Source of the DNA: a virus
DNA length: 64,000 bases
Direction: 5' to 3' (one strand)
Virus record (IMG/VR): IMGVR_UViG_3300037755_000476
Shown: piece after piece, positions 3,132-49,678 of the stretch
Position numbering within the stretch: position 1 is the first letter of the stretch
How the letters are laid out: each line of letters opens with the position of its first letter
Program-made: the position numbers and the translations under genes
Notes under the pieces: generated by a model
Databases searched by the model: none
The model's input: only the letters and a program-made list of their open reading frames with translations
What the model was told of the DNA's origin: nothing

Positions 3132-3161
3132 AACCCTTCGTCTCCAAACGAGGGGTTTTTT
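3132..3161 (+). terminator. Intrinsic terminator/attenuator 2
   Basis: Stem aacccttcg/cgaggggtt plus T run. Confidence 0.88.
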
Positions 3162-3171
3162 GTTTTTATAC

Positions 3172-3255
3172 TGCAACGTAAAGCCAGTGGTTCTGGCAGA
3201 CTGTCTCTAAAACAGTTATTGTAAAAGGGGAGTGGTTCGATTCCGCACGGTGCAA
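3172..3255 (+). tRNA. Amber suppressor tRNA (anticodon CUA), type II-like
   Basis: actgt-ctCTAaa-acagt (anticodon 3207-3209); D-stem gccag/ctggc; long variable region; A73. Confidence 0.8.
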
Positions 3256-3259
3256 CAAT

Positions 3260-3344
3260 TAGTGGGTAGCGCAAAGGTTGCGAACGGGATTTGAACCCCC
3301 GGCTATCGGGTGACTGGTAAGGGTTCGATTCCTTTACCCACTAC
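3260..3344 (+). tRNA. tRNA-Ser(UGA)
   Basis: Loop ttTGAac; paired long variable arm; acceptor+T helix can be 13 bp. Confidence 0.75.
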
Positions 3345-3348
3345 AAAC

Positions 3349-3435
3349 AGAGGGGTGGCAGAGAGGCTTATTGCAGCAGGTTGCTAACTTGCCGAGGTAT
3401 AAACACTTCCGAGGGTTCAAATCCCTTCCCCTCTT
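3349..3435 (+). tRNA. tRNA-Ser(GCU)
   Basis: gcagg-ttGCTaa-cttgc; long variable arm. Confidence 0.92.
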
Positions 3436-3441
3436 CTAAAC

Positions 3442-3527
3442 GACTAGGTTGCCGTAGTGGCCGAACGGTCTGGGCTGTTAACCCAGTGGATAATATCCCA
3501 TCGTAGGTTCGAATCCTACCCTAGTCG
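3442..3527 (+). tRNA. tRNA-Asn(GUU) with long variable arm
   Basis: ctggg-ctGTTaa-cccag; variable arm tggataatatccca; G73. Confidence 0.88.
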
Positions 3528-3535
3528 CTTAAAAT

Positions 3536-43517: not shown

Positions 43518-43895
43518 TTATCGTACCTGTAAATAAGACGTTATTTTTCCAAGTCCTTTTATCCTGTCTTGATACCTCTCTACCTTATACACTCCCGCTG
43601 CCGGGTCGTATATTTTTTTACCTTTATACACTACCCAGTGACTCCTACCATCGTTCCAACACACCTTAAGTATGCAAGGAAAGTCTACCCCCTCGTACTG
43701 CACCCCTATTTTAGTTTTGAACCTAGTCAGCTTTGTGCCTAGGGGGAGTTTTAAGGCAGCGACCAAATCTTTGGTAGAAGTGCATCCGGATTTTTTAATA
43801 AGTTTTATAGATTCCTCCAACGTTATCCCTAAAATCATGGCCACGCAAGATTGCCCACATAAGTTACTGCCCTTAGGTTGTCTTATAAATTCCAT
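43518..43895 (-). CDS. Peptidase C39-like papain-fold protein
   Basis: RQ....CGQSCVAM, HWVV, IYDP. Confidence 0.78.
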   Translation of the reverse strand: MEFIRQPKGSNLCGQSCVAMILGITLEESIKLIKKSGCTSTKDLVAALKLPLGTKLTRFKTKIGVQYEGVDFPCILKVCWNDGRSHWVVYKGKKIYDPAAGVYKVERYQDRIKGLGKITSYLQVR

Positions 43896-43901
43896 ACTTT
43901 T

Positions 43902-44123
43902 CTAATCTTTAAACCCTAGCCCACCTAATATCCTATCCACCTTTTCGTCTATCACATTCTGCATCTCCCTGCAATATCCATACAGTTCGACCTTCTCGAA
44001 GTCTTTTAGATACTTCTTACAGTCGTTGATAATGAATTGGTGCGCCCATTCTTTGAACGAGGCCACGTTAGGGTGTGATTTAATAAAGGTTTCTAAGTCT
44101 TGGATGGGTTCGTAGTCTTTCAT
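43902..44123 (-). CDS. Hypothetical protein
   Basis: 73-aa ORF in an operon. Confidence 0.55.
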   Translation of the reverse strand: MKDYEPIQDLETFIKSHPNVASFKEWAHQFIINDCKKYLKDFEKVELYGYCREMQNVIDEKVDRILGGLGFKD

Positions 44124-45461: not shown

Positions 45462-45476
45462 AAATATTTAATACAC

Positions 45477-45662
45477 TTATTTTGGCTCCTTTCCCAAAGC
45501 TTTAAAATTACGTCTCTTCTCGTTGTCCGGATAATCCCCCACATCTTGTTCGACCTCGTAATACCTTACCTCGGCCTTCCAGAGTTTGGTCTCCCCGTCC
45601 CACATTTCCACGTAGTACGGGAATTTACCCAGTTTGTCCTTCACTACTTTTACTCTACCCAT
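45477..45662 (-). CDS. Hypothetical protein
   Basis: Overlapping ORF in an operon. Confidence 0.5.
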   Translation of the reverse strand: MGRVKVVKDKLGKFPYYVEMWDGETKLWKAEVRYYEVEQDVGDYPDNEKRRNFKALGKEPK

Positions 45663-46551
45663 TAATCAATTCTTTAATATCTTTTTTAGTAATCGACGTT
45701 TCTTTTCCTTTTGCCTTGCAGGGGAGCACGTTCAGGATTTCAATGGCCTTGGCCTTGTCGGTCTTGGTCATCTTGGAAATTGCCGTCTTTAATTGTTCCG
45801 CGATTTCCGCTGTGTACTCTCCACCAAGGAAGATATACTCTAGGATTCCTAAAGGCTCTTGTTCTACCGGCTCCGAAACTTCTATAGGCTCCTCCCCCCT
45901 TAGTACCCTCACTACGTTCACCACAGCTACGACGTCCCTTTCACAATACTTAACTATATCCTTAATCTTTCCCTCATAATACAGCCTCCCGACATCTGAA
46001 CCGTTGAACTCCTCTTTGGGAGACGGGAGTCCAAGTGCCGTAGTCACTGATACCAATGTAGATACCTTGAATCCGGTACTTTTCCACAGAAGTGCCGTAT
46101 CGAAATAAGGAACTGTCCAAGGCTTTTCGTGGGCCATATCAAATATTTGGTGCATCTCTACCCTATTTATCAAACACCTTTTCATTATAAACGGCGCATC
46201 AAATCCGGTTATAACGTGCCCACAAAGCCAAGTCTTATTGTTGGCGAACTTGGAGACGGCCTGATTAAATTCTTCCAACAGCTCTTTTTCATCCTCGTTG
46301 GAAAATGTTTTCAAAACAATCTTATCGTTCCTTACTGCCCCTATAGTAATACAGGCTATGCGTCCGAACTCTGCGTACAGGGGAGCCTCCGTAAAGTAAC
46401 TCCCTACTACGTCTTCTACGCCGTTCTTAATGCAGTAGTAGCTCCAAGCGTCGTACAAAGGAGTGTCTATAACAAGCTCCGGAACCGCTGGTGCAGTTTC
46501 TATGTCTATGAAAAGAAAGTCCTCTAGGTTATATTTTTTTAATATTCTCAC
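45655..46551 (-). CDS. 3'-5' exonuclease (PolB-like DEDD)
   Basis: FIDIET, GH...FD.PF, YCERDV. Confidence 0.85.
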   Translation of the reverse strand: MRILKKYNLEDFLFIDIETAPAVPELVIDTPLYDAWSYYCIKNGVEDVVGSYFTEAPLYAEFGRIACITIGAVRNDKIVLKTFSNEDEKELLEEFNQAVSKFANNKTWLCGHVITGFDAPFIMKRCLINRVEMHQIFDMAHEKPWTVPYFDTALLWKSTGFKVSTLVSVTTALGLPSPKEEFNGSDVGRLYYEGKIKDIVKYCERDVVAVVNVVRVLRGEEPIEVSEPVEQEPLGILEYIFLGGEYTAEIAEQLKTAISKMTKTDKAKAIEILNVLPCKAKGKETSITKKDIKELING

Positions 46552-46933
46552 CCTTTTTAAGTTTAAAATGTTTGGATATGTTTTCTTTGTGCGATATTAT
46601 CTGTAAGTTATCTTTCCTGTTGTTAGACTTATCCTCGTCTATGTGGTCTATTACTTTTTCTGTAGTCCCGTCAGTCTCGTGACCCATAAAATAATACGCC
46701 ACTAGCTTATGTACATACTTTTTAGACTCTTTTCCGTCTTTGTACAGACTTACTTGGATGTGTCCGTACGTATCGGGAAATCCTTTTAACAACCTCTCCC
46801 TCTTTAGTATCTGGCCGTGAATAGGATTAGGAGCGAATCTTTTGAGGGACTTAACCTCCCCGAAATCGCTTATTTGATACAGACCCTCATAACCAAGTAT
46901 GTCTCTCCAACTTTCTACAAGAAGGGTATTCAA
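46529..46933 (-). CDS. NUMOD4-HNH homing endonuclease
   Basis: WRDILGYEGLYQISDFG; VHKLVA; IDHID..KSNN. Confidence 0.9.
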   Translation of the reverse strand: MNTLLVESWRDILGYEGLYQISDFGEVKSLKRFAPNPIHGQILKRERLLKGFPDTYGHIQVSLYKDGKESKKYVHKLVAYYFMGHETDGTTEKVIDHIDEDKSNNRKDNLQIISHKENISKHFKLKKGENIKKI

Positions 46934-47472
46934 GCTCCCCTAAGTTTAACCCAAGTCTTATAGCAATAGCTCACTTGGTGATAGCAATCTTGTAGTGCAT
47001 TATGTGCCGTCCCTCTAAAAGGCTCGTTCTTTTTTATTTCGGGATAAAAATTACAAAGGGTCCTGACGCACATTTCGTTGCGGAAATGCCAAGGCCTGCT
47101 TATTCCGACGGCGTCGTAGGCATTCCCTAAAATACCTAGGTCAAAAGATGCAGAATTTCCCCAGACCTTATAACTGTTCGTATTTATAAAATCCGTAAAA
47201 TTGATAAGGGCTTGGGGCAGGCTCAACTGGTTATCCTTTTTGAGCATATCGTTTTGCGCCTTTTTATCTTGGCCCAACCACCAGATAACCGTGGCGGGGT
47301 CTATTTTCAGACCGTGGTCTACGGAACTCTTTAGGTCCACATTGACCAAGAACTCCCTACCGGTCTCTCCGGTAGCCATGTCAAACTCTAAGGCCCCTAT
47401 ACTGGTTATGGCCGAAAAGGATTTGGTGCCCATTGTCTCTAGGTCCACCATTAAATTTTCAAATCTTTTCAT
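46930..47472 (-). CDS. 3'-5' exoribonuclease (Rv2179c-like DEDD)
   Basis: MVDLETMG, WGNSASFD, HNALQD. Confidence 0.85.
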   Translation of the reverse strand: MKRFENLMVDLETMGTKSFSAITSIGALEFDMATGETGREFLVNVDLKSSVDHGLKIDPATVIWWLGQDKKAQNDMLKKDNQLSLPQALINFTDFINTNSYKVWGNSASFDLGILGNAYDAVGISRPWHFRNEMCVRTLCNFYPEIKKNEPFRGTAHNALQDCYHQVSYCYKTWVKLRGA

Positions 47473-47494
47473 TTAATTGTTTTAAGTTAAATTC

Positions 47495-47773
47495 CTACAC
47501 TGAACCAAACAGGCTCAACATCTTTACCCTGTCCAAAGCGTTCTCCTCACGTATCAACTGCTCCTGCCCCCTTTTTACCTTATCGGACCCGTGCTCCTTT
47601 ATCCTCCTGACCACTTTTTCCATTACCTCTACCCTTTCTTCGTGCGAAAGATTGCCCCTATCCTTCCAAGAGAAGAATAGGAGGTCCTCTAACATGTTCT
47701 TTTCCTTGGTAACGTCCTGTATATCATTCAGCCTCTTAAAGGCCTTTACTCTGTTGAACACTCCCATAATCAT
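47495..47773 (-). CDS. Hypothetical protein
   Basis: 92-aa ORF. Confidence 0.55.
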   Translation of the reverse strand: MIMGVFNRVKAFKRLNDIQDVTKEKNMLEDLLFFSWKDRGNLSHEERVEVMEKVVRRIKEHGSDKVKRGQEQLIREENALDRVKMLSLFGSV

Positions 47774-48114
47774 CGTTTATTACACTTGTCCAAGAAATCG
47801 TGACATTGTTCCACTACCCATCCCAATAAATAACACTGGGGCTCGTCGTTGACCACGTCCATTTTAATACAGCAGTTTGCCTAGATAAAACCTACACAAT
47901 GTAGCGCTTCGTGGGCCACTACGCTAGGGGGAGAATCTTTGGTCAGGGCTGTATAGTAGTGGTCATATCCTTGTGAATCCTTCGTGGCAGTACAGAACGC
48001 CCCTCCATCAAAATTAGAATCCGGCTCTATCTTCTTTGCCTCCCCATTAAGGTCTTCCGACACTATTATATGAGGGGTCCCGAAATAAATCGGGACCTTT
48101 ATAGTCTTCTTCAT
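47770..48114 (-). CDS. HExxH protein interrupted by an in-frame TAG at 47881-47883 (readthrough candidate or nonsense mutant)
   Basis: VAHEALHCVGFI*ANCCIKMDVVNDEPQCYLLGWVVEQC; readthrough frame ends in an ATGA overlap with the next gene. Confidence 0.7.
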
Positions 48115-48115
48115 A

Positions 48116-49678
48116 CTACCTTTCTACGGTTACTACCGCCTCTGTGGTAAGGAACGTACCCGCCACTGACGCAGCGTTCTCAAGGGCACAACGTGTAACC
48201 TTTTTAGGGTCGATAATTCCCTCTTCAATCATATTCACAAATTCTCCGGTCTTAACGTTGATACCATATCCTTCGGAATTGTATGAGCAATACTCACGCC
48301 CGGCGTTATCACATATCTGCCTTGCAGGGGCAGAGCAGGATTCCAACACTATATGGTAACCTGCCTCAAAGGCGGATAGCTCTACAGGAGATACTGACAT
48401 CAACGAACTTGCAGCATTGTCAAGAGCGACCCCTCCACCGGCAACGATGCCTTCTTCAAGTGCCGACCTAGTGGCATTTATACTGTCCTCTACCCTGTCC
48501 TGCTTCTCCTTCAACTCACTATCAGACTTTGCCCCCACGTAAAGTGTGGCCACCCCGCCCGTGATTCTGGACAGCCTTTCCTGTAGTTCGAGCTTATCGA
48601 ACTGATTTTTAGTGGCCGAAATTTTCTCCTTCAACTCGGATACCAGTCCTATAAGGTTATCGGCATTCCCTACCAACAGTGAATCTTTTTCGGATATCAC
48701 GCACTTGCTGAGCCTTCCCAGAACTTCCGGACGTAGCTTGACGCCCTCCACATCGGACACGACCGTTGCGCCCGTAAGTACGGAGATATCGTTCATAAGG
48801 TCCTTCTCTATCTTGAGTATCTGGGGAGTCTTTACAAGACATATCTTTCCGGCTATGGCCCCCTTCTTGACATTCTCTAAAATAGTGGAGAGTACGAACG
48901 GGTCAACATCGTCGGCGATAATCAGCAAAGTGTTCTTTGGCTGTGAGAATACGGCACTGAAAAGGCTTACTATTGCATCCCCCTTCTCTAGCTTCCCTTT
49001 GTGTAGGAGTACGAAAGGCTGGTCGAGTTCGCATACGTCCTTCACCTTGTTAGTTATGAAATTCTGGTGGTAGAATCCCCTGTCCAACTGCACCCCGTCG
49101 CGAAGTTCGACATAGGTATCACTGGTATCGGATACAGCGGTCACCACTGTCCCGTGCTTGCCTATCTTATTGAAGGCCTTGGCTATAATCTTTCCAAGCT
49201 CCGTGTCCCCGTTTGCCGAAATAGTGGCCACGCTCTCCAAATCGGACTTGGACACTTTCTTGGACACCTTGTCCAAGTAGGCTACAATATCCTTGGTAGC
49301 TTGGTCTATGCCCCTTTTTAGCTCTACGGAAGAGATATTGTCGGAAGAGGACAAGAGGTTTAGACCTTTCTCAAAAATGCTCTGGGCAAGTACCGTTGCG
49401 GTAGTGGTTCCGTCGCCGGCCTGACTGTTGGTCCTACGTGCGGCCTCTTTTACCACCTCTGCCCCAATCCTTTCGTACTCGTCCCTAGGACTTATGGACT
49501 TGGCAATCGATACCCCGTCTTTAGAGATGATGTAGCTGTAACTGGTCCCCACTTGTACCGGAAATATGACGTTACGTCCTTCTGCCCCAAGGGATACCTT
49601 TACGGCATTTGCAACTGCATCGACTCCCCTTTTTAAGGCCTCCCGTGCTTCGTTATTAAATTTAATTGTAGTGTTCAT
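48116..49678 (-). CDS. groEL: Chaperonin GroEL (Cpn60)
   Basis: AVKVSLG..GRNV, AGDGTTTATVLA, EGIVAGGG, GIIDP. Confidence 0.95.
   Translation of the reverse strand: MNTTIKFNNEAREALKRGVDAVANAVKVSLGAEGRNVIFPVQVGTSYSYIISKDGVSIAKSISPRDEYERIGAEVVKEAARRTNSQAGDGTTTATVLAQSIFEKGLNLLSSSDNISSVELKRGIDQATKDIVAYLDKVSKKVSKSDLESVATISANGDTELGKIIAKAFNKIGKHGTVVTAVSDTSDTYVELRDGVQLDRGFYHQNFITNKVKDVCELDQPFVLLHKGKLEKGDAIVSLFSAVFSQPKNTLLIIADDVDPFVLSTILENVKKGAIAGKICLVKTPQILKIEKDLMNDISVLTGATVVSDVEGVKLRPEVLGRLSKCVISEKDSLLVGNADNLIGLVSELKEKISATKNQFDKLELQERLSRITGGVATLYVGAKSDSELKEKQDRVEDSINATRSALEEGIVAGGGVALDNAASSLMSVSPVELSAFEAGYHIVLESCSAPARQICDNAGREYCSYNSEGYGINVKTGEFVNMIEEGIIDPKKVTRCALENAASVAGTFLTTEAVVTVER

Follow-up and report, generated by a model that had tools for sequence, protein, structure and literature searches.

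Results

Layout and Neighborhood of the Interrupted Gene

The 64,000-nucleotide stretch analyzed here (hereafter the window) carries on its minus strand a gene of the phage protein family phrog_1365 that is interrupted by an in-frame amber codon. The 77-aa open reading frame (ORF) at 48114..47881 (–) terminates in ...HEALHCVGFI-TAG, and the frame beyond the TAG stays open as ANCCIKMDVVNDEPQCYLLGWVVEQCHDFLDKCNKR up to a TGA at 47772..47770 (–). The N-terminal piece (47881..48114, –) consists of 77 codons and the TAG and covers a predicted beta-sheet and the HExxH helix with H68, E69, and H72. The TAG itself (47883..47881, –) is codon 78 of the full-length frame and stands in the context ATC TAG GCA. 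The C-terminal piece (47770..47880, –) continues in the same frame for 36 codons, ANCCIKMDVVNDEPQCYLLGW...CNKR, followed by the TGA, and encodes the invariant N89, E91, and W99 and a predicted second long helix. It is accessible only through read-through of the TAG or through reinitiation at M85, and gene callers reduce the whole gene to a 77-aa stub.

At its downstream end, the stop of the full-length, 114-codon frame overlaps the start of the next gene, a 92-aa ORF at 47773..47495 (–), the TGA and the ATG (47773..47771) sharing the letters ATGA at 47770..47773 (–). At its upstream end, the 77-codon ORF starts at 48114 (–), one base past the TAG that terminates the gene of the 520-aa GroEL; the stop and the ATG of the interrupted gene, separated by that single base, occupy 48112-48118 (–). 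The initial annotation of the locus had described an ORF stopping at the TAG at 47881-47883 with an open frame onward, as well as the ATGA overlap at 47770-47773. Both are present in the sequence, stop–start coupling is common in the operon, and all the coordinates given there are correct.

The interrupted gene sits in a replication-type GroEL/exonuclease block on the minus strand and not among lysis or structural genes. Between GroEL and an RNase_H_2-type exonuclease, the window has four extra genes (45462-48114): the phrog_1365 gene, the 92-aa ORF, an Rv2179c-like exonuclease, and an HNH/NUMOD4 endonuclease. The same arrangement is found in the closest genome available, IMG/VR contig 3300037761_000327 (hereafter G001; 73,659 bp, CheckV completeness 100%), which is collinear with the window and ~95% identical to it, the individual blocks ranging from 75 to 99% and mostly from 90 to 98%. 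The corresponding region of Cellulophaga phage phi38:1 (L043:1300-3816) is without all four genes, marking them as a variable accessory insertion. There, GroEL is directly followed by the exonuclease and no phrog_1365 homolog is present; a search did not find the phrog_1365 gene in phages phi40:1 or Calle either. As the gene is absent from phi38:1, it is accessory, its simple loss would be tolerable, and a plain pseudogene is possible.

Family Assignment of the Two Pieces

We compared the two pieces with the PHROGs profiles separately and as a read-through product. The 77-aa head matches phrog_1365 at profile positions 4–83 (E 3.1e-5), and the 36-aa tail by itself matches the same profile at positions 89–121 (E 1.1e-7). 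A tail that matches phrog_1365 alone shows that the continuation is no chance open frame. When the TAG is read as sense, residues 1–113 of the product (P0001) cover positions 4–121 of 127 with an E value of 2.9e-18; the intact relative P0013 gives 2e-20. In tblastn searches, 37 phage records, among them Flavobacterium, Croceibacter, and Tenacibaculum phages and a crAss-like phage, span residues 2–113 in one segment each, and 10 homologs from a large protein collection are single proteins of 107–142 aa. A profile search of 1.84 billion representatives returned 4,704 family members at E ≤ 0.001, and no split homolog was seen in the near-length searches or among the best 150 of the 4,704 members.

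Given the shared family, the adjoining profile positions, and the homologs that are all single ORFs, the head and the tail are by sequence comparison one phrog_1365 gene. The claim of the initial annotation that the two halves form one continuous phage protein family thus holds, and the check that it had proposed, a search for a family common to both halves, returned phrog_1365 for each (head 4–83, tail 89–121). Family members are typically single uninterrupted ORFs of ~105–125 aa, with a median length of 115 aa among 160 aligned representatives. Under translation table 11, the window copy departs from this by its stop at codon 78, and it agrees with the family only when the TAG is read as sense.

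The alignment of the 160 representatives also shows what the stop removes. All 160 representatives have H68, E69, and E91, and 159 have H72; the read-through product keeps these residues together with N89, Y95, and W99. Four of the seven, N89, E91, Y95, and W99, are encoded downstream of the TAG; with E91 present in every representative, read-through would be needed for the full protein. At column 78, where the window has the amber codon, the representatives carry large hydrophobic or aromatic residues only (133 F, 12 L, 9 Y, 3 W, and 3 M).

Predicted Structure of the Protein

An AlphaFold (AF2) model built on the intact relative reached a pLDDT of 89.7. The predicted fold has a four-stranded sheet with one short helix, a helix at residues 63–80 that carries HExxH, a loop, and a helix at residues 91–113 that begins at E91 and packs on the HExxH helix in the model. 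The family of ~115-aa proteins thus combines an invariant HExxH with an invariant Glu 19 residues past the second His, the motif known from zincins and gluzincins, in which a downstream Glu is the third ligand. Judged by this motif alone, the phrog_1365 protein is probably a minimal zinc metallopeptidase.

Searches against known domains and structures gave little to add to the motif. The read-through protein has no Pfam match, and the family is without a Pfam model; one homolog matches Tox-MPTase4 in a Pfam search with a weak E value of 0.0064. Foldseek returned no match at E ≤ 0.001, the best VIA-align scores (Z 5.1) were to unrelated chains, with the predicted zincin 3e11 at Z 3.6, and Atlas gave only a 0.88 lead to Peptidase_M78/DUF2268. 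No solved structure was matched by sequence and no convincing fold match was found for the phrog_1365 protein. On the model, the 77-aa product is without the putative third metal ligand and without one of the two core helices. Lacking Glu91 and the entire C-terminal helix, the fragment is expected to be inactive.

Age of the Amber Codon

The G001 copy of the gene differs from that of the window at 4 of 345 bases, and where the window has TAG, G001 has TGG (Trp), a one-base difference corresponding to a G-to-A transition. More distant homologs have Phe at codon 78. A change from TGG to TAG in the lineage of the window needs fewer events than the reverse; with only one close relative and Phe in the outgroup, this direction is the more parsimonious one and not a proven one. 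As a relative ~95% identical has TGG, the sequence comparison makes the amber codon very recent in the window's lineage.

The initial annotation had asked for the residue at the TAG position, which is Trp in the nearest relative and mostly Phe in the family. It had also raised a recent nonsense mutation as the alternative to suppression, an idea that the sense codon of the ~95% identical relative bears out, except that the precursor is TGG and not TTG, the example given there. Between the two options, the evidence fits a combination: a recent TAG, a single affected gene, and a matching suppressor all stood, while a conserved TAG did not.

Three contigs, assembled by two pipelines (JGI and Logan), have the identical 77-aa product among their gene calls, which makes an assembly slip at the TAG unlikely. 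The one JGI fragment compared ends before the tRNA, and the window is where TAG and CTA are seen together. A search of viral contigs for the allele pattern found G001 only. Five matches to the pattern in metagenome contigs were discarded as unrelated chance matches.

Origin of the tRNA(CUA)

ARAGORN identified 16 tRNAs at 1.4–5.7 kb of the window, one of which, 85 nt in length, has the anticodon CTA (3172..3256, +; anticodon at 3207..3209). A phage-encoded tRNA of the kind that the initial annotation had postulated as suppressor is therefore present. By blastn against GenBank phages, the tRNA matches 86 nt at 91% identity in the Cellulophaga phages phi38:1, phi40:1, and Calle_1-3, which otherwise align with the window over only ~100 nt of GroEL. 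The anticodon loop reads CTGTAAA in phi38:1, phi40:1, and Calle vs. CTCTAAA in the window, and the anticodon differs from that of the ortholog by a single base, G34 to C. The 22-nt anticodon arm recurs in conventional tRNA-Tyr genes of four other viral contigs, in each case with GTA. With the anticodon of the ortholog being GUA, the tRNA(CUA) of the window descends from a tRNA-Tyr and is, on this comparison, a tRNA-Tyr in which G34 has become C. The D-stem has in addition a compensatory C–G to T–A change (GCTA/TAGC vs. GCCA/TGGC). The 91% conservation relative to phages that barely align elsewhere, together with the compensatory stem change, indicates that the tRNA(CUA) has been selected as an RNA.

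In phi38:1, the GUA ortholog lies at KC821614.1 36931-37016. The GenBank records of phi38:1, phi40:1, and Calle_1-3 carry no annotation for it, and ARAGORN misses it. In the ~5-kb tRNA regions of these Cellulophaga phages that we inspected, neither the annotation nor ARAGORN gave another tRNA-Tyr. Exact scans of genome contigs for the anticodon arm, with CTA or GTA, gave no match, and a search with the pattern of the T-arm and acceptor matched only phi38:1 and Calle.

The tRNA(CUA) has A73, U35, and a long variable arm (a 13-nt variable region), all of which are identity elements of bacterial TyrRS; its first pair is U1–A72, the usual one being G1–C72. It also shows several oddities: a 4-nt linker between the acceptor and the D-stem, mismatches at A5/G68 and A49/A65, and a 6-bp anticodon stem. 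Among the Rfam models, it scores best on tRNA-Sec with 30.1 bits, below the gathering score, and lower on the tRNA model. The oddities are common to the phi38:1 ortholog, which makes them conserved features and not signs of decay. The Tyr identity thus draws on the anticodon of the orthologs, on A73, and on the long variable arm, and with a structure this atypical, charging by TyrRS is a step that we infer.

The slot flanked by tRNA-Ile(TAT) and tRNA-Ser(TGA), which holds the tRNA(CUA) in the window, is occupied in G001 by a different gene, a tRNA-Tyr(GTA). On either side of the slot, the window and G001 are ~93% identical (window 3140-3350 vs. G001 69380-69600), and the tRNA gene itself has been replaced. 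The precise exchange of ~85 nt between unrelated-looking tRNA-Tyr-type genes resembles the swap of a single-tRNA cassette. Another unusual tRNA lies close by: the tRNA-Asn(GTT) of the window (3442-3528, +) is 87 nt long and class II-like with a long variable arm, as is its 88-nt counterpart in G001, while the tRNA-Asn genes of phi38:1 and Calle are ordinary in form and 72–73 nt long. The Asn anticodon GUU is one base away from the Tyr anticodon GUA.

TAG Usage across the Window

To see how TAG is used elsewhere, we checked all coding-strand ORFs of G001 with 45 aa or more against the window, one codon at a time. In the parts of the 64 kb that align to G001, the sole sense-to-TAG change in a credible gene is the one at codon 78. 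The remaining sense-to-TAG matches are in short alternative-frame ORFs inside real genes or upstream of real starts. As the only in-frame TAG in a credible gene of the window, codon 78 is the only candidate target of the suppressor there, the final ~10 kb of the genome lying beyond the window.

As a terminator, TAG appears unaffected. At all 14 TAG stops that could be compared, both the window and G001 have TAG, and relative to the suppressor-free G001, no TAG terminator of the window has been replaced. TAG terminates ~11 other credible genes, including GroEL, a 1,226-aa protein, and an exonuclease, and read-through at these stops would add C-terminal extensions of 0–127 residues; with an efficient suppressor, GroEL would become 22 aa longer and the 1,226-aa protein 53 aa longer. 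As no TAG stop has been purged, the suppressor would have to be weak or very young.

Genome-wide recoding is excluded by the ORFs of up to 1,611 aa that table 11 leaves intact and by the ~11 genes ending in TAG. The window, with a GC content of 44%, has neither the many in-frame TAGs nor the depletion of TAG as terminator that characterize recoded phages. We also considered a second suppressor target at 44123..43518 (–), where a 73-aa ORF ends in TAG and a 125-aa ORF follows in the same frame two codons on. No PHROG spans the junction, and the candidate was rejected, because G001, with no suppressor, has the same arrangement at 98% identity, making this TAG an ordinary stop. An active amber suppressor would yield a 201-aa fusion at this locus as a by-product.

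Discussion

An amber codon and an amber-reading anticodon are both present in the window and in none of the relatives examined. Two rare derived states in one genome and in no relative examined, at a column where Tyr is one of the five residue types among the 160 representatives, suggest a functional link between the two. We consider it fairly probable that a recent amber mutation in a gene of this marine Flavobacteriia phage is tolerated or rescued by the phage's own Tyr-derived suppressor. Following the change of TGG to TAG, termination at codon 78 would give the 77-aa fragment. If the host TyrRS still charges the tRNA(CUA), Tyr would be inserted at the amber codon, giving the full 114-aa protein with a Y78 of the aromatic kind that the family tolerates; read-through would also restore the flow of ribosomes to the ATGA-coupled 92-aa gene downstream. 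The amber mutation may have come first, with the anticodon change then selected as a pseudo-reversion, as with the T4 psu+ mutants, or the suppressor may have come first and thereby made the nonsense mutation tolerable. Whichever the order, the amber codon and the matching suppressor are a young pair. That the tRNA is charged with Tyr, that the stop is read through, that the product is active, and which mutation came first are what we infer from the sequences of one codon and one tRNA.

The same stop could be that of a plain pseudogene, in which a dispensable gene has been inactivated, the CUA tRNA is an unrelated or nonfunctional mutant, and no meaningful full-length protein is made. The phrog_1365 gene is not essential to the group, being absent from phi38:1 and, by search, also from phi40:1 and Calle, and with a mutation this recent, the intact sequence downstream of the TAG is uninformative. 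The atypical structure and subthreshold model score of the tRNA point the same way, as do the unpurged TAG stops. We nevertheless find a plain pseudogene rather unlikely: it leaves to coincidence the two rare derived changes, amber codon and amber anticodon, that meet in one genome and in no relative examined, and it does not account for Tyr being within the five residue types allowed at column 78 or for a tRNA that, with its 91% conservation and compensatory stem change, is under selection as an RNA. The codon and the anticodon would also have to be wrong independently and yet match if the TAG or the CTA were a sequencing or assembly artifact; the window is apparently a metagenome assembly, and single-base consensus errors do occur in these, but with the same 77-aa product on three contigs from two assembly pipelines, this is the least probable of the explanations considered.

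Two further possibilities grant the interruption a function. In recoded phages, suppressor-dependent stops have been proposed to time expression (bioRxiv 10.1101/2021.08.26.457843), and the TAG could similarly be a programmed and selected gate, closed until the tRNA block of the phage is expressed; the ATGA coupling of the full-length frame to the next gene would suit such a device. It is improbable given that the relatives do not share the TAG, the ~95% identical one having TGG and the homologs examined all being uninterrupted, and that a single gene, located in the GroEL/exonuclease block, is affected. The protein could also be made in two pieces that reassemble, with termination at the TAG and reinitiation at the ATG of the conserved Met85. 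An in-frame 30-aa ORF with that ATG (47862..47770) begins 18 nt past the stop, the interruption is close to the loop that joins the model's two long helices, and overlapping or adjacent stop–start coupling is frequent in the operon. Such a product would lose residues 78–84, including a conserved hydrophobic position, and with no split homolog in the near-length searches or among the best 150 of the 4,704 family members, we regard a two-piece protein as more improbable still than a programmed gate.

Rescue of a recent amber mutation by the phage's own suppressor remains our preferred reading, and mechanistically the closest cases, by analogy, are the suppressors of classical genetics. The E. 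coli suppressor supF (su+3) is tyrT with G34 changed to C, and the T4 psu+ strains, found as pseudo-revertants of amber mutants, have suppressor mutations in tRNA genes that T4 itself encodes. As in supF, a single change of GUA to CUA in its anticodon appears to have turned an existing tRNA into an amber suppressor; as in T4 psu+, the suppressor tRNA is encoded by the phage, in the same genome as the amber-interrupted gene; and as in both, TAG otherwise remains a stop. Whereas supF and psu+ were selected in the laboratory, the present case comes from an environmental phage genome, with an atypical tRNA that would have to be charged with Tyr. With respect to phrog_1365, the read-through product is a full-length match with all invariant residues in place, and the stop falls at a conserved hydrophobic or aromatic column.

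Models of code change propose an ambiguous intermediate, with a suppressor present and the stop codon still in use, in which in-frame stops become tolerable. We tentatively suggest, as something that may well not hold, that the window shows a phage at the very outset of reassigning a stop codon, with an in-place change of a tRNA-Tyr anticodon and one TAG fixed in the population consensus. If so, it would be the predicted intermediate of the "suppressor first, in-frame stops later" kind, with TAG read as Tyr, a normal GC content, and TAG still serving as terminator. Natural cases in which a single codon is affected, and in which close relatives still show both ancestral states, are rare; here, these states are the TGG of a ~95% identical phage and the GUA that cultured Cellulophaga phages have in their orthologous tRNA. 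As relatives and their hosts are in culture, it would be possible to measure directly what read-through costs at the ~11 natural TAG stops and what it gains at the single internal one.

Among natural phages, the closest cases are the recoded crAss-like, Lak, Agate, and Jade phages, which likewise combine a CUA tRNA with in-frame TAGs. Borges et al. (bioRxiv 10.1101/2021.08.26.457843) proposed that a suppressor is first acquired by a standard-code phage and that in-frame stops accumulate later, and they noted one standard-code phage with a TGA suppressor. The recoded phages have many TAGs in their late genes, whereas one in-frame TAG was found in the window, in the GroEL/exonuclease block and not in a lysis or structural gene. 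Unlike in the recoded phages, TAG is not depleted, terminating ~11 genes, and the GC content, 44%, is not low. The suppressor of the window derives from a tRNA-Tyr and would have arisen in place by a point mutation, whereas the only reassignments that this survey reports for phages are TAG to Gln and TGA to Trp (bioRxiv 10.1101/2021.08.26.457843). With its other genes, and presumably its host too, on the standard code, the phage of the window would fit the suppressor-first route at its earliest stage.
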